Source: an uncultured Actinomycetes bacterium
Lineage (GTDB): Bacteria > Actinomycetota > Thermoleophilia > UBA2241
DNA length: 64,000 nt
Reading direction: 5' to 3'
Assembly (NCBI GenBank): GCA_963709345.1
Contig: CAVPVX010000001.1
Location: 1-64,000 of the forward strand
A model generated the notes under the pieces. It was not told the origin of the DNA and did not search any database. It saw only the letters and a list, made by a program, of their open reading frames with translations. Of the stretch, positions 5,995 to 61,143 are shown piece after piece (the first letter of the stretch is position 1; each line of letters begins with the position of its first letter). Made by a program: the position numbers and the translations under genes.

Positions 5995-7644
5995 CTAGGC
6001 CGGCGTCGGCACCGAGCCCGGCTGTTCCTTCGGTATCCGCCCGGTGAAGAAGAGGGCGATCACGCCGATGACGGCGAGCACGGACAGGGCCGTGCGAAGA
6101 CCGTCGATCTGCGACGCCTCGTTCTGGTCGATGATCTCCTTCTGGACCTCCGCAGGGACTGCCGCCTCCGTCAGGCCGGCCTCGACCTGGGCGTTGGAGA
6201 TGAACGGAGCTCCGGCCGCCAACTGGGTGTTCGCCTCGTCCTTGACCGACTGGGGCACGTTCGGGTTGGCCTCGATGCCGGCCAGGAAGGAGGCGGTGAG
6301 CACCGCGATCAAAATCGAGCCGGCGAGAGCCGTCCCGAGCGAGGCCCCCAGCTGCGTGGCGGTGTTCTGCAAACCGCCGACCTCGGAACTCTGCTCGGTC
6401 GCCACGGCCGACACGGTCACGTTGCCCAGTTGCGACGCAAGCGCCCCGATTCCGAGCCCGATGATGATCATCGGGACGAACACGATGGATGAGTCGGCGC
6501 CGATCTCGAGGCTGCCGATCAGCACCAGGAGTCCGGCGACCAGAGCCAGCAGGCCGACGCGCACCACGCGCCGTGGGTTGGCCTTCGGGAGAAAGCGCGG
6601 GACGCCGGCGGCGGCTACGAGCAGCGCCAGGGACAGCGGCACGAGCCGCATCCCTGTCTCCATGGGCGACAGCCCGAGCACCACCGAGAGGAACAGCGGC
6701 ACGGTGAAGAAGACCCCCGCCTGGATCAGGAACAGGAACAGGAAGGTGACGAGACCGCCGGTGAGCTGCCGGTGGCTGAAGAGTGACGGCGCGATGAGCG
6801 GCTCCTTGCCGGTACGCTCGAGACGCTGCTGCCAGCGAAGGAACAGCCAGAGAAGGAAGAGGCCGGCGATGATGAACCAGATCGTCAGAGAAAGCCCGGC
6901 GAAGGACGTCGCTCCCTCCTTCGGAAGGAACCATCCCCACGTCGACGACATCAGCACGCCGAGCACGACGAGCGCAAGGCCCGCCGAGGAGACCACCACG
7001 CCGATCAGATCGAGGCGCGGGCGCTTGACGACCGGCTCGTCGGCCGCCCGCCGCGCCAGGAACAGGATGGCGATGACGATGACCACCTCCCCGACGAAGA
7101 CGTAGCGCCACGAGAAGTACGTGGTCATGAAGCCCCCGATGACGGGTCCTACGGCGATGGCGATTGCCGCTGCGGCGGCCACCAGCCCGTAGGCGCGCGG
7201 GCGTCCCTCGGGTGCGAAGTTGCTCGCCACCAGCCCGACGATCGCCGGCATGATGAGGATGGCGCCGATGCCCTCGATGAACGACCAGCCGATGATCAGC
7301 ACGGTGAGGTTCGGCGCCAGCGCGGTCGTGAGCGATCCGCAGCCGTAGACGACGCAGCCGATGGAGAACGCGCGCTTGCGCCCGATCATGCCGCCGATCT
7401 TGCCGCCGAGGATCATGAGGCTGGCCATGACCAGCGTGTACAGCGTGATCGCCGTCTGCACGCCCTGCACCGTCGTGCCGAGGTCCTCGGCGACGGTGGC
7501 GATGGAGACGTTCATGACCGACGAGTCAAGAGCCATGAGGAACTGGCCCGCCGCCAGGGTGAAGAGGATCAGTCCCGCGCCTGCCGTGGCGGCAGCCGCG
7601 ACCTTGCCGGCCCCGGCAGCGCCGGACGTCGTCTTCTTCGCCAC
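5995..7644 (-). CDS. MFS transporter, DHA2 (14-TM) type
   Basis: QFLMALDSSVMNVS and GGKIGGMIGRKR (motif A); many TM helices. Confidence 0.9.
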   Translation of the reverse strand: MAKKTTSGAAGAGKVAAAATAGAGLILFTLAAGQFLMALDSSVMNVSIATVAEDLGTTVQGVQTAITLYTLVMASLMILGGKIGGMIGRKRAFSIGCVVYGCGSLTTALAPNLTVLIIGWSFIEGIGAILIMPAIVGLVASNFAPEGRPRAYGLVAAAAAIAIAVGPVIGGFMTTYFSWRYVFVGEVVIVIAILFLARRAADEPVVKRPRLDLIGVVVSSAGLALVVLGVLMSSTWGWFLPKEGATSFAGLSLTIWFIIAGLFLLWLFLRWQQRLERTGKEPLIAPSLFSHRQLTGGLVTFLFLFLIQAGVFFTVPLFLSVVLGLSPMETGMRLVPLSLALLVAAAGVPRFLPKANPRRVVRVGLLALVAGLLVLIGSLEIGADSSIVFVPMIIIGLGIGALASQLGNVTVSAVATEQSSEVGGLQNTATQLGASLGTALAGSILIAVLTASFLAGIEANPNVPQSVKDEANTQLAAGAPFISNAQVEAGLTEAAVPAEVQKEIIDQNEASQIDGLRTALSVLAVIGVIALFFTGRIPKEQPGSVPTPA

Positions 7645-7684
7645 TTCAGTTCCCCCTCATGAGACTCTCGCCAGCCGACTCAGT

Positions 7685-7700
7685 CTGACCCAACGGTCAG
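7685..7700. promoter_or_regulatory. Putative TetR operator
   Basis: CTGACC-CAAC-GGTCAG, inside a TTGCGC-N17-CAGACT promoter upstream of the MFS gene. Confidence 0.65.
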
Positions 7701-7888
7701 GACGGCGCAATGCCGCCAATCCGAGAGTCATGCCCTCGGCGGCTCCGACGAACCCGAGGATCCCTGCGGCGAGCGGCACGAGGAGAGACACCTGAAGGGC
7801 GGACGATGGCGATGGACGCAGCATTGATCCACCGACCTTCTCTCCATCCGCGTGGAGCGGGGTCGCCACTCGAAGCGCTGATCCTCCG

Positions 7889-8542
7889 TCAGGTGGAGCG
7901 ACCCAGTACACGCCTGATGGTCCTGATCGGCAGGAGCAGGTAGACGCCGATCAGCAAGTACAGCGCCACGCCCACGTAGGGCGAGATGAGCCCGAGCGCC
8001 GTCGCCACCCCGTAGAAGACGAGGCTCGGCGCCAGCTGGTACTTCACGCGATTGTCCTCCGCGCGTTCCTCACCCTTGTCCTCGCCGAAGAGGCCTTCGC
8101 GCTCGGCGTACTTGCCGAGCACGATGAGCATCAGACTCAGGAGGAAGAGGATGATGCCGAAGAACGCCACCGCCGTACGCTCGCCGCCCGTCTCCGCGTC
8201 GGTCGTCCTGAGATATGTCTCCATCACTCTGGTCGGGAACGGCAGAAAGGCGACCAGCAAGAGGAGCAACAGGTTCAGCCGCAGGAAGCCGGCGTTGACG
8301 CGTTCCAGCGCCTCGGTCAGCGCGCTGTGCTCGATCCAGACGACGCCGATCGACATGAAGGCGATGAAGTAGGCCAGGTACACCGGCCGCTCGTGCCACA
8401 GCGCCGACAACAGACCACCGCCGCCGTGCTCCGGCACAGCGATCTCGATGACCAGGAGCGTGATGGCGATCGCGAAGACTCCGTCGCTGAACGCCTCCAG
8501 ACGGCCTTTGCTTTTCGCGCCTTTGGACGGCAACTCGTTCAT
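7889..8542 (-). CDS. TMEM175-family potassium channel
   Basis: RLEAFSDGVFAIAITLL signature; W..H and LPFPT motifs. Confidence 0.9.
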   Translation of the reverse strand: MNELPSKGAKSKGRLEAFSDGVFAIAITLLVIEIAVPEHGGGGLLSALWHERPVYLAYFIAFMSIGVVWIEHSALTEALERVNAGFLRLNLLLLLLVAFLPFPTRVMETYLRTTDAETGGERTAVAFFGIILFLLSLMLIVLGKYAEREGLFGEDKGEERAEDNRVKYQLAPSLVFYGVATALGLISPYVGVALYLLIGVYLLLPIRTIRRVLGRST

Positions 8543-8670: not shown

Positions 8671-9180
8671 TCAGGCTGTCGCGTCCTTCTTGTGGTGCTT
8701 GGCGCCGAAGGCGTGCTTGAGCTCCGCTTCCTGCTCGGCCGTGAGGTTGGAGCGCACCAGCTTGGCGTTGGTGCCCTCGACGGCGGCGAGGAACTTGTCC
8801 TCCGTCAGCTGGCTGATGACGAGGAACCAGCCGGCCTTGCCCGGCGGCACCGCGTCGCCCATCTGCTGGAGGACTTCCTTGTCGATCCCGGTCTTGCCCA
8901 GCTTGCCGAACAGGGCGCCCATGCCGGCGCCGATGGCGAGACCGAGGAACGGCACGAAGAAGAGCAGGCCGAAGAGCATGCCCCAGAAGGCGCCGCCGAG
9001 GGCGCCCGCGCCGACCAGTCCATGGCCGTGCTTGACGTGCGGCTTGCCGTCGGGGTCGCGGACGACCTCGGCTGCGTCCTGCAGCTGCACGATCATGTCC
9101 TTCTGAAGCTCCGCGAGCTTGAGGCCGAAGCGGTCGGCCTCAATCTCGTTCTCGAAGCCGAGGACCATCATTTCGCTCAT
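8671..9180 (-). CDS. DUF1269 family membrane protein
   Basis: LQDAAEVVRDPDGK, GALGGAFWGMLFGLLF and GIDKE; close paralog at 52031..52531. Confidence 0.88.
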   Translation of the reverse strand: MSEMMVLGFENEIEADRFGLKLAELQKDMIVQLQDAAEVVRDPDGKPHVKHGHGLVGAGALGGAFWGMLFGLLFFVPFLGLAIGAGMGALFGKLGKTGIDKEVLQQMGDAVPPGKAGWFLVISQLTEDKFLAAVEGTNAKLVRSNLTAEQEAELKHAFGAKHHKKDATA

Positions 9181-9307
9181 ACGCCCTTCCCTTTCAATCG
9201 GGTGGTCCAAGCGGAGTCGCCAGACCGACAATATGTCACTCTTCCCAACGAGCAGTGAGTCCCCAGACCACCCTCGCGTCGACCACTAGGATGATGAGGG
9301 TCCAGAC

Positions 9308-9323
9308 CTTACCATACGGTCAG
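9308..9323. promoter_or_regulatory. Putative TetR operator
   Basis: CTTACC-ATAC-GGTCAG between the divergent DUF1269 and tetR genes; TATACT at 9330. Confidence 0.6.
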
Positions 9324-9378
9324 GGCATATATACTGCGGCGGCGCCGAGGCCGCGTCAAGCGGCCGATGGCGGCAGAT

Positions 9379-9394
9379 GTTACCAGGGGGTAAC
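9379..9394. promoter_or_regulatory. Putative TetR operator (perfect arms)
   Basis: GTTACC-AGGG-GGTAAC just upstream of tetR. Confidence 0.75.
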
Positions 9395-9430
9395 TCCCCG
9401 GTGCACAGGACCGAAACCGGACGATGACTG

Positions 9431-10096
9431 GTGGGCCCACAGGTGACGGAGAGAAAACGACCATCTCGGGGCGGTGCGACGGCGGACGGCCGACGCGCAG
9501 ACATCCTCGACACCGCGGAGAAGCTGTTCGCCGAGCGCGGCTACGACTTCGTGACCGTCAGGGACATCGCCGCGGCCGCTGGGGTCACGCACCCCCTGAT
9601 CTACTACCATTGGGGCTCGAAGCGTGGCCTGCTCGCCGCCGTGCTCGAGCGCAACCAGTCGCGCGTGCGCAGCCTCACGGCCGACCTGACCGATCCCCGC
9701 GAAGCCATCCTGAGCATCATCGAGAACTACCTGGAAGAGGGCCGGCTGTACCTGCTCATCATGGCTCGCAGCTTCCTCGGCGGGATGCCGGTACTCGATT
9801 GGCCCGGCGGCTACCCCGGTATGGAGGTGGCAGTCGACGTACTGCTCGCGGCCGGGCCGGACGACGATCCAGAGTGGGACGAGCAGGTGCGAGGGGTGGT
9901 CTCTCTCGTGACCGCGATGCTCTGCGGCTGGGTGCTCATGGGGGAGCAGATCATGGATGTCGCCGACGTCCCGCCGGCGCGGCGACCGGCGGAGCGACAG
10001 AGGCTGGTCCGGGCCGTCGACGAGCTGTTGGCAGCCACCCTCGCAACGCGCGACGGCGGGCCGCGTGACACGCGGCGGCGGCACGGGCTAGGCTAG
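9431..10096 (+). CDS. TetR/AcrR family transcriptional regulator
   Basis: N-terminal HTH: ILDTAEKLFAERGYDFVTVRDIAAAAGVTHPLIYYHWGSK. Confidence 0.92.
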   Translation: MGPQVTERKRPSRGGATADGRRADILDTAEKLFAERGYDFVTVRDIAAAAGVTHPLIYYHWGSKRGLLAAVLERNQSRVRSLTADLTDPREAILSIIENYLEEGRLYLLIMARSFLGGMPVLDWPGGYPGMEVAVDVLLAAGPDDDPEWDEQVRGVVSLVTAMLCGWVLMGEQIMDVADVPPARRPAERQRLVRAVDELLAATLATRDGGPRDTRRRHGLG

Positions 10097-49438: not shown

Positions 49439-50192
49439 TCAGGCGACCGGCGCCGGCACTCCCTGGAGGTGCCGGCGCCAGCCGAGCAGCAGCGCATGGG
49501 CCTGCTCGGCGCCGACGATCGGAGTCGCCGGGGCGGGTAGCGCGGCCGGATACAGCAGGAACGGCCGCGTCTGCGACCCGCCCATGCCGCCGTGGAACGA
49601 GATCAGCTCCTCGAAGGCGCAGCCCTCGTCCAGCTGCGCGTCGTAGAAGCTGTTGACCATGATATCGGCGACGTGCGCAAAGCCGTCGCTGCGCAGCAGG
49701 TGATGCGGCGCGGTGCTCGAGAAGCCAGCTAGGGGGTCCTCGCCCTCGACGCGCCCCTCGTCGAGGTAGTTGACCCCGTTCGCCCCGAGTACCAGCGCAC
49801 CATGCTCGCCCGAGCGCACCAGCAACCATCCGACGTGAGGGTGGGCGCGAAGGGCCGGGAGCAGTGCCGGATGCCGCTCCTCGATCTCCTCCATCCTGTA
49901 CCGGCGGTCCTTCTCCATCAGGTACACGAGCCCCAGGTTGCCGGAGCCGAGGACGATGACATCCTCGCCCCCGAGGTCGCTCGCGGCGGGACCCTCCTGC
50001 TCGCGGCCGGTGGCCTCACGCAAGGCCTTGGACACGGCCGAGTCGTTCTCATCGCCGGACGCGAGGCGGGCGACCGAGGCACCGCTCAGCGAACGCTTGA
50101 CCAGATCGTCCAAACCGTACCCGTTGCGCTGCTTGAAGGTCGCGCCCTGTGTCTGGCCGTGGTCGGAGAGGACGACGATCTCGTATGGCCGC
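49439..50192 (-). pseudogene. C-terminal fragment of an alkaline-phosphatase/phosphodiesterase-superfamily protein
   Basis: RPYEIVVLSDHGQ, GSGNLGLVY, AFEELISFHGGMGG; no N-terminal half and no convincing start. Confidence 0.7.
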
Positions 50193-50353
50193 GCTCGTGA
50201 CCCAGTGAACGAGCAGGCGGCGAAGGCGCATCCGGGGCCGCTCCGGCCGCCACTCCGGGACCGCCCCGTAGGCCGGATGCGCACAGCCGCCCCTGTCCCG
50301 ACCTCGTCGCTGCGGCTCCATACGAACCACCTGCCCAGCCTTCGCTCGCGGCG

Positions 50354-51908
50354 TCACTCCACCCCGTTGTCCTCGGCCTGCGGTTTGCGGAACGGCCACT
50401 CCCCGGCCACAAGGCTCAGAGCGCCCTCGAGAAGAACGGCCAACACAATGATCAGCACGATCCAGAGCCATGACCAACTGCCGAACGCCAGGAGCACGAG
50501 GCCGGCGATCAGGACCCCCCAGCGAAGCGCCTGCACGTGCCGCCACACCCAAGCCGTGAGCGGCCGTGCGGTGGTGACGTCGAAGTCGCTTCTGGAGACG
50601 ACACGCCTGCCCGTCTCCACGACGGCGACCTGCAGGTCGCGGCGCCCGGAGAACCAGGCGACCACGGCGACCACGGCGCCGATGACGACGATCCAGATGG
50701 TGATCGTGGTCAGAGGCCCGATGGCCGCGCCGACCACGTCCCTCGCCAGCCCCAGGCCACCGGCCCGTTCCAGGTCGTCGACGATCATGGCGGAACCGCG
50801 CCTGACGAGCACTCGTGTGACGATCAGCGCGATGGCAACGCCGACGCCGAGCTGGATGAGCGTGCGACGACGAGCGCGCGACAGCCAGACGGTCAGAGGC
50901 GATGAGCACGAGGGTGACGATGGGGATGACCCACGTGAGCGTGTCGAACCAGCGCACTGCCGTCTGGGCCGGCCCCAGAGAGTCCGATTTGAGCAGCGTG
51001 ACCTGGCCGAAGTCGTCCGGCAGGGGCCTGCCGGCCCATGACGAGACCTGGCCGATCGCCGTCGCCGGGTCGGTGCCGGGCTCGATCACCGGCGGGGCGA
51101 ACTTGTCGGCGAGCGCGCCCGGCAGCCTGCTGTCGAGCCACACGAGCGCCTGGCTGATGAGGGGCAGCGTGTCGAGCCTCACGTCGCTGCCCTCGATGTA
51201 GGCGTAGGTCGTGTCGCCGCGCAGCAGCGCCACGATCTTGTCGTGCGCCACCTCGTTGATCCTGAGCCACAGCTCGTACGCCTTGTCGCTGCTGAGCACT
51301 TTCTTCACGCCGTCGGTGAGGAAGTCGTCGACGGCTCCGGTGATCGGGCCGGCGAGGAACGACGCCTCTGGAGGCAGGGCATCCGCCGTCCGTCGCTGCA
51401 GGTCGGTGGCGGTCACCACCTCGCCGGCGATGTACTCGCTGAGCGCCTGGATCGCCTTCGGGTTCTTGCCGATGGGAGCGACCAGCTTCATGTAGCCGTC
51501 GGTGCTGAGGACCGAGTAGTGCGTCCAGATGGTGATGCCGCTCACCACGACGGCGAGACACGAGAGGATGACGAGGACGCCGACGAGGTAGCGGCGCCTG
51601 CGAAGACCCCCGCGACGGCCGGCAGGCTCCGCCTGCGGCTCGTCGACGGCCTTCGCAGTCGCCTCCTCGTCCGGCGCACGGGCAGCCGTCACCGCAGTCA
51701 CCGCCGTCGTCTCCGACGCAGTGGGGTCCGCAGCCGGGCGCGTTGCCTCTTCCAGGTCCGGCACGACCTCACCCGAGAGTTGCGTCCCGAGCGCCTCGTT
51801 CTCGGCCTCGAGTGCGGCGATCTTGTCGGCCAGCGCCTTCTGCTTCTTGAGGCTCGCGTTCCGCGCCTCGAGCGCCGCGAGCTGAGCGCGTAGTTCCTTC
51901 TCGTTCAT
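50354..51908 (-). CDS. Hypothetical membrane protein with N-terminal coiled coil; +1 frameshift near 50895
   Basis: Coding-like ORF from ATG 51908 that continues in the 50354..50812 frame with TM helices; span is 3n+1. Confidence 0.75.
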
Positions 51909-52030: not shown

Positions 52031-52531
52031 TCAGTCCTTGGCGTGCTTCTCGGTGCCGAAGGCCTTCTTGAGCTCCTCTTCCTGCTCCGTCGAGAGGTTG
52101 GAGCGTACCAGCTTGGCGTTGGTGCCCTGCACGGCGGCGAGGAACTTGTCCTCGGTCATCTGGCCGATGACGAGGAACCAGCCGGCCTTGCCCGGCGGTA
52201 CCGCGTCGCCCATCTGCTCGAGCACCTGCTTGTCGATGCCGGTCTTGCCCATCTTGCCGAAGAGGGCGCCCATGCCGGCGCCGATGGCGAGGCCGAGGAA
52301 CGGCATGAAGAAGAGCAGGCCGAAGAGCATGCCCCAGAAGGCGCCGCCGAGGGCTCCCGCGCCGACCAGCTTGGTGTCGTGCTTGACGTGCGGCTTGCCG
52401 TCCTCGTCGCGGACGACCATGGCGGCGTCCTGCAACTGCACGATCATGTCCTTCTGCAGCCCCGCCAGCGTAACGCCGAAGTCGTCGGCCGCAGCCTCGT
52501 TGTCGAATCCCAGGACCATCAGTTCGCTCAT
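52031..52531 (-). CDS. DUF1269 family membrane protein (second paralog)
   Basis: MSELMVLGF..GALGGAFWGMLFGLLF; very similar to 8671..9180. Confidence 0.88.
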   Translation of the reverse strand: MSELMVLGFDNEAAADDFGVTLAGLQKDMIVQLQDAAMVVRDEDGKPHVKHDTKLVGAGALGGAFWGMLFGLLFFMPFLGLAIGAGMGALFGKMGKTGIDKQVLEQMGDAVPPGKAGWFLVIGQMTEDKFLAAVQGTNAKLVRSNLSTEQEEELKKAFGTEKHAKD

Positions 52532-52636
52532 GTGCACTCCTTGTCGCTCTCGCCGAACACTGCATGATGCCCGTACGTCGCACGGGCCAAGCTGACCGTG
52601 ATGCTACCCCAACAGCGCGAACTGGACACCTGTGAC

Positions 52637-52702: not shown

Positions 52703-53680
52703 TCAGCGAAAAGCGCCGGGTGCATCCTTGACGGCCCGGCTGAGGATGCGTCTGGCGTTCACGCTCTTGATGTGCGAGCCGTCGTAGAAACCCTCCGGCG
52801 TGCCGCCGAACGACTCGATCTCCGTGTAGTCGAGCAGATGGAAGTCGTACTCGCCCTCCAGGCCGCGCAGATACGCTGCGAAGCCGTCGGCCTTGGCCTG
52901 CCAGCCCACCTCGCGGAAGGCGGCGAGCGCCGTCGGGTGATACGGCATGATCACCAGCACCGGCTCGACGCCGTGCAGGTTGAACAGGCGGAGCGTGCGC
53001 TCGAAGTAGCGCCGGGCGCGTGTCTGCGGGTAGGCCGACGGAGTCGCGGCCCTGGGCGCCATGCGCGCCAGGTAGATCCGCATGGACTTCTCGAGCCCGA
53101 CTCCCTGTTCCTCCCGCTGGTCGTAGCTGTTGCGGAGCAGGGACCCACGGCCGCTGTACTCGTGATCCCACTGCACACCCGGCATCGGCTTCGCGCCAAG
53201 GGCGCGCTGGGCCGCGATCAGCTCAGCCGGCAGAAACCGCGTGAGTCGCTCCTCGCCGAGCAGCCCGGGGTGAAGCGGCGAGTCGACGAGCGTCGTCACC
53301 TGCAGCGCCCAGACGCAGCGGAGCTTGACCTCCGGATCTCGCCAGAAGAGGTGGCGCGTGATCGCGTAGACGTCCTCCGGGCGCGAGTTCTGGAGCGCGA
53401 AGTTGAAGGCCGGTAGGCCGGTCAGCCGCTCGACCACCGAGGGCTTGAAGCGCTGCGCCCGCGAGCCGCCGTAGATGACGAGCTCCGGCGGCTCCGGCAA
53501 GAACTCCACCCGGTCGCACTTGTAGGTGCGGTCGTACAGCGGCGGCACCGCGCCGCCGCGCCGGGCGGCGCCGGCCACCGGCGTCACCGCCCAGGCGCCG
53601 AAGACGACGCTCCCCACCGCGGCGAGCGCGGCGAGCGCGATCAAACGGGCGGTGACGATGCCTGTCGCGTGCGAGTGCAT
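52703..53680 (-). CDS. Exported hypothetical protein, SGNH/DltD-like motifs
   Basis: N-terminal hydrophobic segment; YGGSRA, FNFA, FYDGSH. Confidence 0.7.
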   Translation of the reverse strand: MHSHATGIVTARLIALAALAAVGSVVFGAWAVTPVAGAARRGGAVPPLYDRTYKCDRVEFLPEPPELVIYGGSRAQRFKPSVVERLTGLPAFNFALQNSRPEDVYAITRHLFWRDPEVKLRCVWALQVTTLVDSPLHPGLLGEERLTRFLPAELIAAQRALGAKPMPGVQWDHEYSGRGSLLRNSYDQREEQGVGLEKSMRIYLARMAPRAATPSAYPQTRARRYFERTLRLFNLHGVEPVLVIMPYHPTALAAFREVGWQAKADGFAAYLRGLEGEYDFHLLDYTEIESFGGTPEGFYDGSHIKSVNARRILSRAVKDAPGAFR

Positions 53681-53788
53681 CCTTCGATGGTATGACGCCC
53701 GGCGACCCAGACAAAGCCGCGCCCAGGCACTGGCAGCCGCACCGAGGCAGGACGTAGACTGTCCGGGTACAGCGAACGGGGAGCGCGG

Positions 53789-54898
53789 GTGGCCGACGAA
53801 CAGGGGTTCACGTACAGGAAGGCGGGCGTCGACGTCGAGGCGGGCAACCGCGCCGTCGACCTGATGAAGCAGCGGCTGAGGAGCACGAAGAACCCTCTCG
53901 TGCTCGGCGGTCTCGGCGGGTTCGGCGGCGCCATGCGCCTGCCGCGCCTCAAGGATCCCGTCCTCGTCGCCGGCACCGACGGCGTCGGCACCAAGATCGA
54001 GATCGCCCGCCGCGTCGGCCGGCTGGACACCATCGGTATCGATCTCGTGGCGATGAGCGTCAACGACGTCTCCGCGTGCGGCGCCGTACCTCTCTTCTTT
54101 CTCGACTACCTCGTCGTCGGCTCCGTCGTGCCCGAAGAGGTCGCAGACATCGTCACTGGTGTCGACGAGGGATGTCTGCGCGCCCAGTGCGTCCTTCTCG
54201 GCGGCGAGACCGCCGAGCATCCGGGGCAGTTCCCCGACGGAGACTTCGACATGGCGGGCTTCGCCGTCGGCCTCGCCGAGCGCGACGACCTCTGGGGTCC
54301 TCAGTTGGTCAAGGACGGGGACGTGCTCGTCGGCATCGACTCGAGCGGTGTGCACAGCAACGGCTTCAGCCTCATCCGCCACCTGCTCGCCGAACACGCG
54401 ATCGACTTGGACAGCAACTTCATCGGCCAGGGCGGGGGCGTCGGCCTCTGCATCACGCCGAAGGAGGGGTTCGGGGCCTGCTACGACCCGCGCTCGACCG
54501 TCGGCGACGTGCTGCTCACGCCGACGGCCATCTACAGCCCCGTGCTGCACGACCTCGGGCACGCCGGCGGCATGCACGCCGCCGCGCACGTCACCGGCGG
54601 CGGCTTCCCCGACAACGTCGGCCGCGCCGTGCCGGGCGACCTGGCCGCCGTCATCGACCTCGCGAGCTGGACGCCGAGCCCGCTCTTCGGCTGGCTCCAC
54701 GGACTCGGCGTGCACCGCCCCGAGATGCTGAAGACCTTCAACTGTGGGCTCGGCATGGTCCTCGTGATGGATCCGGACCACGTGGAGAAGAACCTCATGA
54801 TCCTCGAGAAGGCCGGCCACGCCTCGCGCGTCGTCGGCGAGATCGTCCCCCGTGGCGACGGACCCGCCGTCACGTACAGCGGAGAGCTCCGCGTATGA
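53789..54898 (+). CDS. purM: Phosphoribosylformylglycinamidine cyclo-ligase (AIR synthetase)
   Basis: TYRKAGVD, GTDGVGTK, GGETAEHP, SSGVHSNGFSL, AHVTGGG, TFNCGLGM. Confidence 0.95.
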   Translation: MADEQGFTYRKAGVDVEAGNRAVDLMKQRLRSTKNPLVLGGLGGFGGAMRLPRLKDPVLVAGTDGVGTKIEIARRVGRLDTIGIDLVAMSVNDVSACGAVPLFFLDYLVVGSVVPEEVADIVTGVDEGCLRAQCVLLGGETAEHPGQFPDGDFDMAGFAVGLAERDDLWGPQLVKDGDVLVGIDSSGVHSNGFSLIRHLLAEHAIDLDSNFIGQGGGVGLCITPKEGFGACYDPRSTVGDVLLTPTAIYSPVLHDLGHAGGMHAAAHVTGGGFPDNVGRAVPGDLAAVIDLASWTPSPLFGWLHGLGVHRPEMLKTFNCGLGMVLVMDPDHVEKNLMILEKAGHASRVVGEIVPRGDGPAVTYSGELRV

Positions 54899-55902
54899 GA
54901 CCGGTCGACCTGCTCGGCTGCGGAGCGCTCAACCTCGATCTGATCTACCGCCTACCCCCCAGCTTCCCGCTCTGGGACGAACTGGGGCCGCCGGGCGGCG
55001 AGCAGTTGATGGACGAGGCGGTGCGAAGAGCGGTCGAGGAGGCGCTGGCGCACGTCGCCCCGACGCGAGCCGGGGGCGGCCAGGCGTCCAACAGCGTGTA
55101 CGCCCTGGCCCGTCTGGGATACAGGGCCGCGATGGTCGGCCGCATAGGCGACGACGACGACGGCCTCTTCCTGCTGGGCGAACTGGATCCGGCCGACGCC
55201 CGGCTGGTCCACCGGGAGGGCGAGACCGGCCGGGTCTACGTTCTCCTGGACGAGCGGGGCGAGCGCCGCAACCTGGTGTGGCCGGCGGCGAACGACGCCT
55301 TCTCGCCGGCCAACCTCCCGAGGCGCCTGCCGCGTACCCGCTGCGCCCTCTTCACCAGCTTCGTCGGAGACGCGCCGCTCGAGGCCCAGCTGGCGCTGCT
55401 CGAACGGCTCCCCGCCGGCGTCGAGGTCGGCTTCGACCCCGGCGAGATCTACGCGCGAAAAGGCGTCAAGCGCTTTCTTCCGATCCTGCAGCGCTGCGCC
55501 TACCTCTTCTCGACCGAGACCGAGCTCGAGATGCTCTGCGGCCTCTCGCTGGCCGAGTCCATCGACTTCCTCCTCAACATCGGAGTTGGCCTCGTGATCG
55601 TCAAGATGGGCAGCCGGGGTGCCCGGCTGGTCGGCCGCCGCGTTGACCTCTACGTGCCGCCTCTGCCCGCGGATGTGGTCGACGTCACCGGCGCCGGCGA
55701 CCTGTTCGCCGCCGGCTTCATCGCCGGGATGCTCGAGCAGGTCGGCCTCGAGAGCGCCGGGCGCCTGGCCTCCTGGGCGGCGAGCCACGGCATCACCGGC
55801 CTCGGTCGCAGCACCTACCCCGACGCCGAGGCCTGGGGTCTGCGCCTTGCCGAGGAGCGCGGGGACGAGCGGCCGGCCGCGAACGGGCCGGGCGGAACGT
55901 GA
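54895..55902 (+). CDS. PfkB/ribokinase-family kinase
   Basis: GALNLD, GGGQASN, VGRIGDD, FDPG, DVTGAGDLFAAGF; ATGA overlap with purM. Confidence 0.92.
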   Translation: MRPVDLLGCGALNLDLIYRLPPSFPLWDELGPPGGEQLMDEAVRRAVEEALAHVAPTRAGGGQASNSVYALARLGYRAAMVGRIGDDDDGLFLLGELDPADARLVHREGETGRVYVLLDERGERRNLVWPAANDAFSPANLPRRLPRTRCALFTSFVGDAPLEAQLALLERLPAGVEVGFDPGEIYARKGVKRFLPILQRCAYLFSTETELEMLCGLSLAESIDFLLNIGVGLVIVKMGSRGARLVGRRVDLYVPPLPADVVDVTGAGDLFAAGFIAGMLEQVGLESAGRLASWAASHGITGLGRSTYPDAEAWGLRLAEERGDERPAANGPGGT

Positions 55903-55921
55903 GCGGGGCGGAGGCGGGCAC

Positions 55922-56731
55922 GTGAGGGTCGGCTGGCTCTCCAGCGGCCGAGACCCAGCCGCCACCAATCTCCTCGCGGACGTCGTCGCGCGGGCGCAGC
56001 AGGACGGCGTCCCGCTCGAGATCGGCGCCGTCTTCAGCGACCGCGAGCGCGGCGAGGCGCCGGAGAGCGACCACTTCATCGACCTCGTCGAGCGACTCGA
56101 CCTGCCGCTCGTCACCTTATCGAGCGCCGCCAGCTGGGTCGAAGCCCAGAAGCTCGGCGTCTCCCGCTCCACGTGGCGCGAGGAGTATCACCGAGGCGTC
56201 ATGGACCTGCTGGTGCCACACCGCCTCGGCGTGCTGGTGATGGCCGGCTACATGCTCGTCGCCAGCCCGGCAATGTGCCGTAAGTTCGCCATCCTCAACC
56301 TCCACCCGGCTCTGCCAAGCGGACCCACCGGCACCTGGCAGGATGTCATCTGGCAGCTCCTCGACGACGAGGCCGACGCGACGGGCGCCATGGTCCACCT
56401 GGCGACGGCGCAACTCGACCGCGGTCCCGTCGTCAGCACCTTCCGTCTCTCCCTGCGCGGCGACGACTGGGAACCACTGTGGCGGCAGTTCCGGGAGAAG
56501 CGCGAGACAAAGAGCGTGTTGGAGATCGCCGCCGCGGAAGGCGAGACCGAGCCTCTGTTCGCCGAGATCCGCCGCCGCGGCGAGATCCGCGAAATACCGC
56601 TGCTCTACCAGACGCTGCGCCAGTTCGCCGAGGGCCGGCTCAACACCTCCAGCGGCGCCGTGTTCGCCGAGTCGGTCCGGCTGCCGCTCGACCTGACGGA
56701 GCTGGTCGACGAGGAGGTCCGGCAGCGATGA
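55922..56731 (+). CDS. Atypical PurN-like formyltransferase
   Basis: MAGYM, LNLHPALP, GAMVH and LDRGP (catalytic N/H/D present); N-terminal loop SSGRDPAA differs from SGxGSN; 269 aa with a C-terminal insertion. Confidence 0.85.
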   Translation: MRVGWLSSGRDPAATNLLADVVARAQQDGVPLEIGAVFSDRERGEAPESDHFIDLVERLDLPLVTLSSAASWVEAQKLGVSRSTWREEYHRGVMDLLVPHRLGVLVMAGYMLVASPAMCRKFAILNLHPALPSGPTGTWQDVIWQLLDDEADATGAMVHLATAQLDRGPVVSTFRLSLRGDDWEPLWRQFREKRETKSVLEIAAAEGETEPLFAEIRRRGEIREIPLLYQTLRQFAEGRLNTSSGAVFAESVRLPLDLTELVDEEVRQR

Positions 56732-57813
56732 GCGCCGGTACGGCTGCACCGGCCGGCCCGCCGGCGACCACCGGCCGCATCTACGTCACCGACTGCGAGG
56801 GGCCGCTCACCAAGAACGACAACGCCCAGGAGATCGCGGAGCGCTTCATCCCTGAGGGAGCCGAGCTCTTCGCCAGGCTCAGCCGGTACGACGACTTCCT
56901 CGCCGACGTGCGCCGCAAGCCCGGCTACAACGCCGGCGACACCCTGCGCCTGCTGCCGCCGTTCCTCAAAGCGTTCTACGTCAGCGACGAGGACGTCGAG
57001 CTCTTCAGCGCCGAGGGCGTCCTGCTGGTGCCCAAGGCGCTGGAGGCGCTCGCCGCCGTCACCGCGCTGATGCCCGCGTACATCATCTCGACATCGTACA
57101 CGCCGTACCTCAGGGCGCTGTGCGAGCTGGCGGAGTTCCCCTTCGCGCGCGTCCGCTGCACCGAGCTCAGCCTGGACGCCTGGGAGATGCCCGAGGCGGA
57201 GGCTGTGTGGCTCCGCGAAGCCGCGGAGCAGGTGCTCGCCCGACCGGTGATCGACATCCCGGAGGGGGCGGTCGGCGAAGGCGACCTCACGCCCGACGAC
57301 AACGCGACGGTGGCCGAGCTCGACGACCTCTTCTGGGCGCGAATGATCGGCCGCGTGAGCGGCGAGATGGTGGCCGCCGTCCGCCCCGTGGGTGGCGGCC
57401 AGAAGCTCGCGGCGCTCGAGACGATCGTCGCTGCCGAGGGCGTCGCCGGAACCGGCGTCATGTACGTCGGCGATTCGATCACCGACGCGCCGCCGCTGGA
57501 GGCCGTCAGGGCCTGGGGCGGCGTCTCGCTCAGCTTCAACGGCAACGCCTACGCGATCGCAGCCGCGGAGTTCGCCGCCGCGAGCCCCGACGCGGACGTA
57601 CAGGCGCGGCTGGCGCAGGCGTTTGCGGAGGGCGGCCGTGACGCCGTGACCGCGGCCGTACGCGCCTGGCCGCAGACGAAGAAGGGCGTCCGGCCGGCCG
57701 GCCGGGCTCGCGCGCGCGTCGGCGTCGTCTCCGAAGAACGCGACGCGCTCACCGAGGCATCCGCCGCCACGCGGCGCCTGGTCCGCGGCGAGCGCGTGGC
57801 CCGCCTCGGCTGA
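56728..57813 (+). CDS. EhaR-like HAD-superfamily phosphohydrolase
   Basis: VTDCEGP (motif I variant), ISTSY (II), GGGQK (III), YVGDSITD (IV), SFNGN; ATGA overlap with the formyltransferase. Confidence 0.8.
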   Translation: MSAGTAAPAGPPATTGRIYVTDCEGPLTKNDNAQEIAERFIPEGAELFARLSRYDDFLADVRRKPGYNAGDTLRLLPPFLKAFYVSDEDVELFSAEGVLLVPKALEALAAVTALMPAYIISTSYTPYLRALCELAEFPFARVRCTELSLDAWEMPEAEAVWLREAAEQVLARPVIDIPEGAVGEGDLTPDDNATVAELDDLFWARMIGRVSGEMVAAVRPVGGGQKLAALETIVAAEGVAGTGVMYVGDSITDAPPLEAVRAWGGVSLSFNGNAYAIAAAEFAAASPDADVQARLAQAFAEGGRDAVTAAVRAWPQTKKGVRPAGRARARVGVVSEERDALTEASAATRRLVRGERVARLG

Positions 57814-57875
57814 GGGAGCGGCCGCCATGCCGCCGCCGGCCGTCTTGCCGCACCCCGCCGACCCGAAAGCCCCCC

Positions 57876-58700
<825 letters not shown>

Positions 58701-58801
58701 CTTCCCGGTGGTCCACCGGCGGCCCGACCGGAAGCGTACGCCGCCGTCCGTCGTTCCACCCTTACGCGCGTACGTTGACGAGTCGGCGCCGACACCCGTA
58801 C

Positions 58802-58828
58802 CGTACTTTGTAAGCCATACAATGTACG
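58802..58828. promoter_or_regulatory. Tandem operators and -10 box of the third tetR
   Basis: CGTACTTTGTAAG and CATACAATGTACG palindromes; TACAAT at 58818. Confidence 0.6.
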
Positions 58829-58851
58829 CCCGGTTCACACAGGAGGACGCC

Positions 58852-59505
58852 ATGCCCGTCGCCGAGGAGACGACCCCGCGCCGCGCCGCCCTGACCCGCG
58901 AGCGCATCGTGGAACTCGCTCTGGAGATCATCGATGAGGACGGTCTCGAGGCCCTGAACATGCGCCGGCTCGCCGCGGGCGCCGGCGTCAGGCCCATGAG
59001 TCTGTACCACCACTTCCCCAACAAGGCGGCGATCCTGGACGCGGTGGGCGAGAGGATCGCCGCGGCGGCGCTCGGAGCCTCGCAGCGTGACCCGCGCTGG
59101 CGGAGCCGCGTGCGCCAGCTGTTCATGGGCCTGCACGCACTCACCGAGGCGCACCCACGGGCGCTGCCACTCATATCCGCGGCCGTCGTACGCACGCCCA
59201 GCGGCCGCCGCTGGATGGAGGAACTGATGGGCACACTCCTCGAGGCAGGCTTCAGCGAGAATCGCGCCGCGACCGTCTATCACGTGCTCGGCGCGTACAC
59301 GCTCGGTCTGGGCTACGCGAGGATGCTGGGCGACGAGGTGCAGACCTCGGACATCGTCGCCCAGCTCGTCGGCCACTGGGCCGACTACCCGAACATGATG
59401 CGCGTCGGCATGCGGCTCGCGGTCTGGGACCGGCCGGGCGAGTTCGAGACCGGGTTGGACGTGTTGCTCGCCCACTTCACGGACCGGCCCGGGAGGCGCG
59501 CGTGA
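58852..59505 (+). CDS. TetR family regulator (TetR_C type)
   Basis: LTRERIVELALEIIDEDGLEALNMRRLA..SLYHHFPNK; FETGLDVLL. Confidence 0.92.
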   Translation: MPVAEETTPRRAALTRERIVELALEIIDEDGLEALNMRRLAAGAGVRPMSLYHHFPNKAAILDAVGERIAAAALGASQRDPRWRSRVRQLFMGLHALTEAHPRALPLISAAVVRTPSGRRWMEELMGTLLEAGFSENRAATVYHVLGAYTLGLGYARMLGDEVQTSDIVAQLVGHWADYPNMMRVGMRLAVWDRPGEFETGLDVLLAHFTDRPGRRA

Positions 59506-61143
59506 ACGGCGAGGGTCCGGTGGAGGCGGCGCAGGCCCGCAGGGCCCCGCTGCGCCGTCCGCCGCTCGGTCGCTCTCTCCGGGTCAAGATGATCAGCCCA
59601 GCCAAGACGGCCGCCGGCAGCCGCTACTGGCGATCCATCAAGTACTCGCTGTTCCCGCCGCTCGGCCTCGCCACCCTGGCCGGATACCTGGATCCCGACG
59701 ACGAGATCGACCTGCAGGACGAGCACGTCGAGACCCTGCGCCTCGACGACGAGCCGGATCTCGTCGTCATCGAGGCCTACATCACCTCCGCCCGCCGCGC
59801 CTACCGCTACGCCGACCACTACCGCGCCAGAGGGCGCCTACGTCTGCCTCGGCGGGCTCCACCCGACGAGCCTGCCGGACGAGGCGGCCCGGCACGCCGA
59901 CAGCGTGTTCTGCGGCCCGGGAGAGGACACCTGGCCGGCGTTCCTCGCCGACTTCCGCGCCGGCCGGCCCCGGCCGCTGTACCGCTCGACTGAGCGCACC
60001 CTCGCCGGCGTCCCGCCGGCGCGCCGCGACCTCATCAAGCGCGACCGGTACCTGGTGCCCAACTCACTGGTCGTGAGCCGCGGCTGCCCGCACGTGTGCG
60101 ATTTCTGCTACAAGGAGGCGTTCTTCCGCGGCGGCAGGTCGTTCTACGTGCAGGCGGTCGAAGATGCCCTGGCCGAGATCGACCGCCTCCCCGGTCGCCA
60201 TCTCTACTTCCTCGACGACAACCTCTTCGGCAGCCCGCCGTTCGCCGAGGCGCTCTTCGACAGTCTCAAGGGGATGGGCCGCCTCTGGCAGGCGGCCGGG
60301 ACGGTAGAGGCGGTGCTCCGCCCCGGCCTCCTCGAGAAAGCGGTGGAGAGCGGGCTGCGCAGCCTGTTCATCGGCTTCGAGACGCTGAGCGAGGCGAACC
60401 TGCGCGGCGCCGGCAAGACGCAGAACCTGGCCGGCGCCGGTGTGGCCGCCGCCCGGGCGGCCGGCCGCCCGGGCGGCGGCGTCTCCGGCGCGCCGCCCTA
60501 CGACGCCGCCGTCCGCCGCCTCCACGACCTCGGCGTCATGGTCAACGGCGCCTTCGTCTTCGGCATGGACCACGACGACCCGTCGGTCTTCCCGCGCACC
60601 GTGGAGTGGGCAGTCAGCCGCGGTATCGAGACGGCCACGTTTCACATCATGACGCCGTATCCCGGCACCCGGCTCGAACGGCGGCTGGCCGCCGAGGGCC
60701 GCGTCACCAGCCGCGACTGGGACCTCTACGACACGCGACACGCCGTGTTCCGGCCCGCCGGCATGACGGCCGCGCAGTTGGAGACCGGCTACTGGGGCGC
60801 CTACCGCGACTTCTACCGCTGGAGCAGTATCTGGCGAGCCGCGTTCGCCCACGGCGACCTGCGCGAGCACGCACGCCACCTCGCCTACACGAGCGGATGG
60901 AAGAAGCTCGAGCCGATGTGGGACTGGGCCATCCGCAGCGGCCAGGTGCACCGCTTCCTGCCGCTCCTCGAGACGATCCTCGACCGGTTCGGCAGCGGCG
61001 GCGGGGCGATGCCGGGCCGGCTCAGGCTCGATGAGACCCGGCCGCCGGCCGGCGCCCCGCGGAGGGAGCCGGCCGGCCCGGCGGCACGGGAGGTCAGGCG
61101 AAGGGCTGGTCCTTCAGCGACCCTCCCCGGCCCCGCTTCTTGA
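59502..61143 (+). CDS. B12-binding-domain radical SAM protein; +1 frameshift near 59832 (start uncertain)
   Basis: PPLGLATLA, SRGCPHVCDFC, FLDDN, IGFE, TPYPGT. Confidence 0.88.

Follow-up and report, generated by a model that had tools for sequence, protein, structure and literature searches.

The first 64,000 nucleotides of contig CAVPVX010000001.1 (GenBank assembly GCA_963709345.1), a stretch referred to here as the window, derive from an uncultured Actinomycetes bacterium (Thermoleophilia, UBA2241) and were found to carry purM followed on the forward strand by three genes that likely form a system for step 3 of de novo purine synthesis, the conversion of glycinamide ribonucleotide (GAR) to formylglycinamide ribonucleotide (FGAR). 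The purM gene (53789..54898, GTG start) encodes aminoimidazole ribonucleotide (AIR) synthetase, the formylglycinamidine ribonucleotide (FGAM) cyclo-ligase. Its stop codon overlaps the start of a PfkB/ribokinase-family kinase gene (54895..55902) in the ATGA at 54895-54898. After the TGA stop of the kinase gene (55900-55902), a 19-nt spacer containing GGAGG leads to the GTG start (55922) of a gene for an atypical PurN-like formyltransferase of 269 aa, here designated fT (55922..56731). A second ATGA (56728-56731) joins the stop of fT to the start of the last gene (56728..57813), which encodes a haloacid dehalogenase (HAD) protein of the EhaR/COG4030 type. A preliminary description of this DNA had pointed to a tightly coupled set of four genes, with two ATGA overlaps and one 19-nt gap, in which a divergent PurN-like enzyme lies between a PfkB kinase and a HAD gene. 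All four frames are open on the forward strand, and both the layout and the family models agree with that description. The layout is not a product of chance, because the order purM-PfkB-fT-HAD is repeated in 31 of 34 actinomycetotal loci.

PurM was identified with TIGR00878 (353.5 bits, above the equivalog cut-off of 236.35), and its AIRS and AIRS_C domains were both found. The kinase scored 122.9 bits with PfkB (PF00294; gathering threshold 25.8), and the TGAGD (GAGD) motif is present in its translation. It falls under every NCBIfam equivalog cut-off, with 100.8 bits against 330 for ribose-1-phosphate kinase (NF053626) and 92.7 against 299.65 for ribokinase (TIGR02152); a role as ribose-1-phosphate kinase, or in pentose-bisphosphate metabolism, was rejected as its main reading on the former score. 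The closest solved structures are ribokinases, the nucleoside kinase MJ0406 and 1TYY (E 1.3e-13), which we take to be an aminoimidazole riboside kinase. PfkB riboside kinases that return purine intermediates to the pathway are known, namely aminoimidazole riboside kinase and adenosine kinase acting on 5-aminoimidazole-4-carboxamide (AICA) riboside. The likeness proposed here is that of a PfkB kinase phosphorylating the 5-OH of a purine-intermediate riboside, which in this case would be glycinamide riboside or its formyl derivative. The known enzymes serve salvage side-roads, whereas the main pathway itself would depend on the kinase in the window.

The fT protein matches Formyl_trans_N (33.9 bits), and the JGI label for its family is PurN; its score with the PurN equivalog TIGR00639, 52.8 bits (52.7 in the genome-wide search), lies under the cut-off of 150.1. 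When aligned to E. coli PurN it keeps the NxH and LDxGP catalytic positions (Asn106/His108/Asp144 in E. coli numbering), ILNLHP of fT pairing with LLNIHP and QLDRGPV with ELDGGPV, and the Asn, His and Asp are invariant across 18 members of the fT family. In PMC3261824, His108 and Asp144 are given as catalytic residues of E. coli PurN. Thus fT shares with PurN the Formyl_trans_N fold family, the three catalytic positions, a similar C-terminal helix and the proposed pathway step. It differs in its sub-cut-off score, in an insert of about 40 residues relative to E. coli PurN, and in its N-terminal loop, SSGRDPAATNL (family consensus S(S/T)GRDxAA), which does not conform to the GxG(S/T)N of PurN and stands in place of GxGSN. 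It differs also in its company, since a HAD protein and a PfkB kinase are always its companions and in one case it is fused to a HAD domain.

The HAD protein has Pfam and NCBIfam matches to generic HAD models alone, and these are weak (E 0.006-0.05). Its placement in the EhaR family, made in the preliminary description, is supported by the names of its relatives: homologs at 71-80% identity bear the JGI names 'energy-converting hydrogenase A subunit R' or 'predicted HAD superfamily phosphohydrolase', and the nearest Atlas clusters include one named EhaR, with a score of 0.98. The EhaR/COG4030-type family has 561 representatives at 50% clustering, and the loci closest to the one in the window (74-80% identity) belong to metagenome-assembled genomes (MAGs) of Thermoleophilia. 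A profile built from 96 relatives gave a strong match to one solved structure, PDB 1Y8A (E 6.4e-73), which is AF1437 of Archaeoglobus fulgidus, a structural-genomics protein with no recorded function; a literature search on AF1437 and 1Y8A found no paper. The AlphaFold2 (AF2) model of the HAD protein (pLDDT 93.8) gave a TM-score of 0.92 against 1Y8A on target length, and the two proteins are of the same family and fold at 29% identity. Phosphoserine phosphatase (SerB), the next-best fold, was rejected as a reading (TM-score about 0.45, identity 12-15%), and it would also leave the link to three cofactor-unrelated formylating enzymes unexplained.

All four HAD motifs are kept across the 96 sequences (D22xE24GP, S121, K226 and GD249SITD253), with D22, S121, K226 and D249/D253 invariant or at least 90% conserved. 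Motif I reads DxEGP, a Glu taking position +2, instead of the usual DxD (DxDxT). An RxxxRG...LG tail at the C-terminus, separate from the core, is invariant too. The protein is proposed to be a GAR 5'-phosphatase or phosphotransferase. Prediction of a complex between fT and the HAD protein gave a score of 0.00, which is no verdict and was counted neither for nor against binding.

The same three families meet at the end of the eha operon of Methanothermobacter, which the preliminary description gives as ehaR-ehaS-ehaT. In agreement with it, PMC3087415 reports the annotations Ftr for EhaS and ribokinase for EhaT and states that the two genes are transcribed together with ehaA-R. The order there is HAD, formyltransferase, ribokinase-like, as it is in Bathyarchaeia. 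The window differs in that its formyltransferase is PurN-like and not Ftr-like, and in that its genes lie downstream of purM and not in an eha hydrogenase operon. This likeness rests on the published EhaS and EhaT annotations, the JGI names of the homologs and the bathyarchaeial gene order.

A profile search of the whole assembly to which the window belongs (3.11 Mb in 11 contigs, 98% complete) found no PurN or PurT above the curated cut-offs. Other purine genes are present: purH (606.8 bits) lies 10 kb downstream of the module, purD scored 501.1 bits, and purS-purQ-purL-purF are on contig 6. As purH is present, 10-formyl-tetrahydrofolate (10-formyl-THF) is in use. The genome has a hole at purine step 3 as far as canonical enzymes are concerned, and fT is its sole PurN-like gene. 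Two other genes of formyltransferase fold are Fmt-like, and these further PurN-like matches were rejected as PurN. They lie at C1:188705-192055 and C2:95664-98903 (genome G000) and scored 159.1 and 182.5 bits against the TIGR00460 cut-off of 201.5; one would have an N-terminal extension of about 148 residues if the called start is correct.

Gene order and partner exchange

One genome per species was scanned, which gave 573 places encoding a relative of the HAD protein, and the best 80 of the 573 were analysed by searching their six-frame open reading frames (ORFs) with the window proteins and with the proteins of a Bathyarchaeum locus (L083). At 68 of these 80 loci, genes for the HAD protein, a PfkB kinase and an fT or Ftr-like enzyme share one strand within 3.2 kb. 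The trio is present in 31/34 loci of Actinomycetota, in the order purM-PfkB-fT-HAD and often with purF, purL or purQ ahead, and in 7/8 loci of Thermodesulfobacteriota as PfkB-fT-HAD. The arrangement HAD-Ftr paralog-PfkB was found in 29/35 loci of Bathyarchaeia and in the one Candidatus Mnemosynella locus. A conserved module of kinase, formyltransferase and phosphatase, in which PurN-like and Ftr-like folds interchange, had been postulated beforehand, and the 68 loci establish it. The other three actinomycetotal loci are accounted for by contig-end cuts or merging by the ORF caller. Among the 12 loci of the whole set without the trio, six are cut by contig ends (L022, L027, L042, L045, L062 and L074), one is an ORF-caller artefact (L030) and one has its kinase gene on the opposite strand (L086); the last four are considered with the alternatives below.

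In the Bathyarchaeum locus, purF-purD-HAD-Ftr-PfkB faces purQ-purL-purS-purM (identities confirmed with Pfam; Ftr paralog, FTR 152.7 and FTR_C 196.4 bits), so that the trio sits exactly between the genes of step 2 and those of step 4. In the flanks, purD was detected at 34 of the 35 bathyarchaeial loci, and pur genes at none of the eight from Thermodesulfobacteriota. 

A third type of partner was found in an archaeal genome (G209), where a PurT-like gene faces PfkB-HAD (TIGR01142 344 bits, ATP-grasp 110.6, PurT_C 25.4). PurT is a known non-homologous replacement of PurN at step 3 that acts alone on GAR and costs one ATP. In the trio the ATP would instead be spent by a separate kinase following a phosphatase step; G209 has its PurT-like gene beside the PfkB-HAD pair, and the genome of the window is devoid of PurT. 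Exactly two Ftr copies are present in all four genomes examined that have an Ftr-like trio, and a single one in G209 with its PurT-like trio. In 5/5 genomes with an isolated HAD gene, an orthologous kinase (47-54% identity) is encoded at another place; three of the five contain two Ftr genes, a fourth a single one and the fifth none.

Natural fusions were found as well. Protein P0296 (599 aa) consists of an atypical fT at the N-terminus followed by an EhaR-like HAD domain, and in P0330 (899 aa) and P0363 (961 aa) the HAD domain is joined to an ATP-grasp domain that spans about 550 residues and is very divergent. In the latter two proteins the N-terminal domain is weakly PurT/PurK-like (about 33 bits over about 35 residues), NEISYRPDDAG being the sole recognisable stretch, and this apparent likeness is best regarded as a lead.

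Two irregularities were observed. At L078, a Bathyarchaeota chromosome (CP070730.1), the Ftr-like gene after the HAD gene (9100-9666) encodes just 188 aa, no kinase gene follows within 8 kb, and purD looks split into frames 6569-7165 and 7165-7989; the cluster may be decaying here, or the assembly may be in error. Six genomes gave a HAD match in two pieces, in one long frame or in adjacent frames (G050 at C4:42457-43665, G209, G191, G252, G260 and G291), which could reflect frameshifts, a variable linker skipped by the profile, or broken genes.

Distribution of the module relative to PurN and PurT

The bacterial sample comprised 151 genomes of the class to which the window belongs. The HAD protein and fT were each detected in 23 genomes, and 22 have both; the module is therefore present in 24 genomes, all of family f1, and the two sets differ solely in G056, with fT at a contig end, and G086, where it is the HAD gene that reaches the end of a contig. 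All 24 are devoid of PurT and of a PurN over the cut-off, and PurN is present in 125 of the 127 genomes without the module (exceptions G112 and G136). Within f1 the module is missing from just two genomes, G002 and G014 (98% complete, 1-2 contigs); both have a canonical PurN, and in G002 its loop reads SGSGTNL, keeping GxGxN. One genome, G070, has PurN and, at the edge of a contig, a HAD-like fragment of 74 residues.

The archaeal sample comprised 201 genomes of the phylum that contains the Mnemosynella genome, with PurN accepted at E <= 1e-25 and PurT-like genes at E <= 1e-60; long frames containing PurN suggest that Halobacteria belong to this phylum. The HAD protein is encoded in 98 genomes, of which 83 are without PurN and without a PurT-like gene, 14 have PurN and one has a PurT-like gene. 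Among the other 103 genomes, PurN or PurT was detected in 95 and neither of them in eight. PurD occurs in 198 genomes of the sample, and 96 of the 98 with the HAD protein are among these. Neither PurN nor PurT was found in five further diverse genomes with the HAD protein, namely those of Mnemosynella and Bathyarchaeum and one MAG each of 'Deltaproteobacteria', Bipolaricaulota and Actinobacteria. The profiling of neighbourhoods and phyletic occurrence suggested for EhaR-like genes in the preliminary description thus shows the trio co-occurring across two domains and largely excluding PurN and PurT. The linkage to purine synthesis proposed there is sustained by this complementarity and by the gene order in pur clusters, and every testable part of its inference was supported.

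The gap had been noted in archaea before. In the curation of Brown et al. (2011; PMC3261824), purN and purT could not be located in M. kandleri, in two Archaeoglobi or in four Methanobacteria (which the paper prints as Methanomicrobiales), and Methanothermobacter, Archaeoglobus and Methanopyrus are reported there to make purines with no recognisable GAR formyltransferase. Archaeoglobus fulgidus, the host of AF1437, is among the archaea so reported there. The paper of Chadwick et al. (2022; PMC9012536) still calls that enzyme unidentified and describes ANME-1 (anaerobic methanotrophic archaea) as devoid of both purN and purT. The earlier statement that some archaea, Methanobacteriales among them, have no recognisable PurN or PurT is in agreement with these two sources.

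The 14 archaeal genomes with both the HAD protein and PurN were looked at more closely. In the six inspected for gene order, a kinase gene follows the HAD gene, no formyltransferase gene lies within 1.5 kb, and PurN is distant or on another contig. The N-terminal loop of PurN is altered in 14/14 (L134-L143, L124-L127), reading SGRGTDL in five, SxSSWGGNL in seven and SNTAGNL in two. In PurN from HAD-less genomes of the same phylum GxGxN is kept in 10/10 sampled (L144-L153). The altered loops fall into three clades and hence represent few independent events. In the E. coli PurN structures this loop presumably holds the 5'-phosphate of GAR; a literature search yielded no usable text on the PurN residues that bind it. 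If the loop does have this role, the formyltransferases that occur with HAD-PfkB all do without the usual phosphate grip, which fits an acceptor that is not phosphorylated.

Taken together, a fixed HAD-PfkB pair with an exchangeable formylating enzyme, drawn from three unrelated folds, fills the genomic and phyletic place of the GAR formyltransferase. New with respect to the preliminary description are the PurT-like fold as a third partner, the gene fusions, the counts on complementarity and the PurN proteins with altered loops.

A candidate route from GAR to FGAR and its alternatives

The partner enzymes use folate, methanofuran or methanopterin, or formate, and therefore the element that they share would be the acceptor and not the cofactor. 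The sole phosphate ester and the sole ribose hydroxyls of that acceptor are those of GAR and FGAR. A ribokinase-type kinase beside a HAD phosphatase that looks active therefore suggests a route of three steps by way of ribosides. The HAD enzyme would strip the 5'-phosphate from GAR to give glycinamide riboside, the formyltransferase would add the formyl group to the free amine of this riboside, and the PfkB kinase would restore the phosphate to yield FGAR, the substrate of PurL. The donor would probably be 10-formyl-THF for fT of the window, formyl-methanofuran or a compound of the formyl-tetrahydromethanopterin (formyl-H4MPT) type for the archaeal Ftr paralogs, and formate plus ATP for the PurT-like partner. 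The order purF, purD, HAD, Ftr, PfkB in Bathyarchaeia matches the proposed sequence of reactions. That the trio is a step-3 system seems to us likely; the chemistry through ribosides, with dephosphorylation, formylation and rephosphorylation, is put forward more tentatively. As a whole we lean, by some degree, towards the view that the window holds a single de novo purine operon whose trio replaces PurN and PurT, making FGAR from GAR and presumably passing through ribosides.

Several observations weigh against this view. The catalytic triad of fT is intact and, with purH in the genome, 10-formyl-THF is used, so that fT might formylate GAR directly and unaided. The riboside route spends an ATP with no evident benefit where 10-formyl-THF is available. 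The mutual exclusion is not absolute, as 14 of the 98 HAD archaea have a PurN over the cut-off (179-224 bits) and one has a PurT-like gene, and four of the 80 loci (L040, L043, L065 and L078) are without at least one partner beside the HAD gene despite sufficient flanks. Moreover, the sampled genomes are related and not independent, so the counts overstate their statistical weight and describe a pattern, not a statistical test.

One alternative is that fT, or elsewhere the Ftr paralog or the PurT-like enzyme, is by itself the GAR formyltransferase, with the HAD protein and the kinase as accessories in riboside salvage or repair or in tuning the pools of GAR and FGAR. Retention in fT of the Asn, His and Asp of PurN, the name PurN that its family already bears at JGI, and the HAD-PfkB pairs in the 14 genomes with an over-cut-off PurN would all suit it, as would the existence of PfkB kinases that salvage ribosides, presumably represented by 1TYY among the structural matches. 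An accessory pair would not, however, be expected to accompany three unrelated formylating folds in two domains, to be fused to two of them, to persist where the genes are scattered, or to be nearly confined to genomes devoid of canonical PurN and PurT, and the PurN genes that do co-occur with it have altered N-terminal loops; we consider this explanation unlikely. A different possibility is that the trio does perform step 3 with the HAD protein as a non-hydrolysing, GAR-binding adaptor or a phosphotransferase subunit, and with the kinase in some other linked role such as re-priming or a side reaction. The fT-HAD and ATP-grasp-HAD fusions imply a physical unit, motif I has DxE instead of DxD, and the conserved C-terminal tail, lying apart from the core in the model, could dock on a partner. 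Against this, 96 diverse sequences show little or no variation at any of the catalytic HAD positions, as expected of an enzyme with genuine phosphoryl chemistry, and the kinase is as conserved as the HAD protein, making this possibility a rather improbable one.

A specific form of phosphoryl transfer may be given a slim chance, in which the HAD protein acts within a complex with the formyl-transfer enzyme, holding the 5'-phosphate of GAR on its aspartate while a transient, enzyme-bound riboside is formylated and then returning it to this riboside at no net cost of ATP, the kinase merely rescuing ribosides that escape. Were this so, the riboside-level step would be an old archaeal solution, present in Methanobacteria, Archaeoglobi, ANME-1 and Bathyarchaeia and later passed to a few bacterial lineages. 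Finally, the module could be unrelated to GAR and serve the making or recycling of a cofactor or the Eha hydrogenase, its proximity to pur genes being incidental. In Methanothermobacter the three genes are co-transcribed with eha hydrogenase genes, according to PMC3087415, and none of the eight Thermodesulfobacteriota loci is flanked by pur genes. Yet the module occurs in bacteria, and none of the annotated neighbours of the window trio is a hydrogenase gene. The module is embedded in pur clusters at 31/34 actinomycetotal and 34/35 bathyarchaeial loci, its distribution mirrors the absence of PurN and PurT, and its partner is always a formyl-transfer enzyme, so that an explanation outside purine synthesis is very improbable.

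Surroundings of the operon and significance

A scan of positions 53200-58200 detected no promoter-like site, and one terminator-like site, which lies within purM, is at chance level and is uninformative on the limits of the operon. An Rfam scan of the whole window found no riboswitch and no other RNA family. Downstream of the HAD gene, an ABC-transporter ATPase is encoded at 57876-58700, 62 nt away, and genes for a TetR regulator (about 58852-59505) and for a radical SAM protein (59905-61143) come next; nothing was found that ties these three genes (57876-61143) to the purine operon. Among the annotated neighbours of the trio in the window (purM, the ABC ATPase, TetR and the radical SAM gene) there is no hydrogenase gene. 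Upstream of purM, on the opposite strand, are an ORF of about 344 aa (52703-53737) with no Pfam match and a gene for a DUF1269 membrane protein (52031-52537), and a further long ORF on that strand (50049-51908) gave no Pfam match.

A full-text literature search, conducted outside subscription journals and supplements, turned up no report of a function of the trio in purine synthesis, and within the searched literature this role looks new. The data supply three specific candidates for the archaeal GAR formyltransferase gap, which thereby becomes directly testable, and they point to the same solution in bacteria. A step otherwise carried out by one enzyme is apparently carried out by three, possibly via intermediates that are not phosphorylated. 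If this is true, EhaR, EhaS and EhaT, now labelled as hydrogenase subunits, would need re-annotation, the orphan structure 1Y8A would gain a function, and the metabolic models of methanogens, methane oxidisers and Bathyarchaeia would have to be corrected. The trio would then represent a new kind of pathway variant, the non-homologous displacement of one enzyme inside a fixed frame of three.

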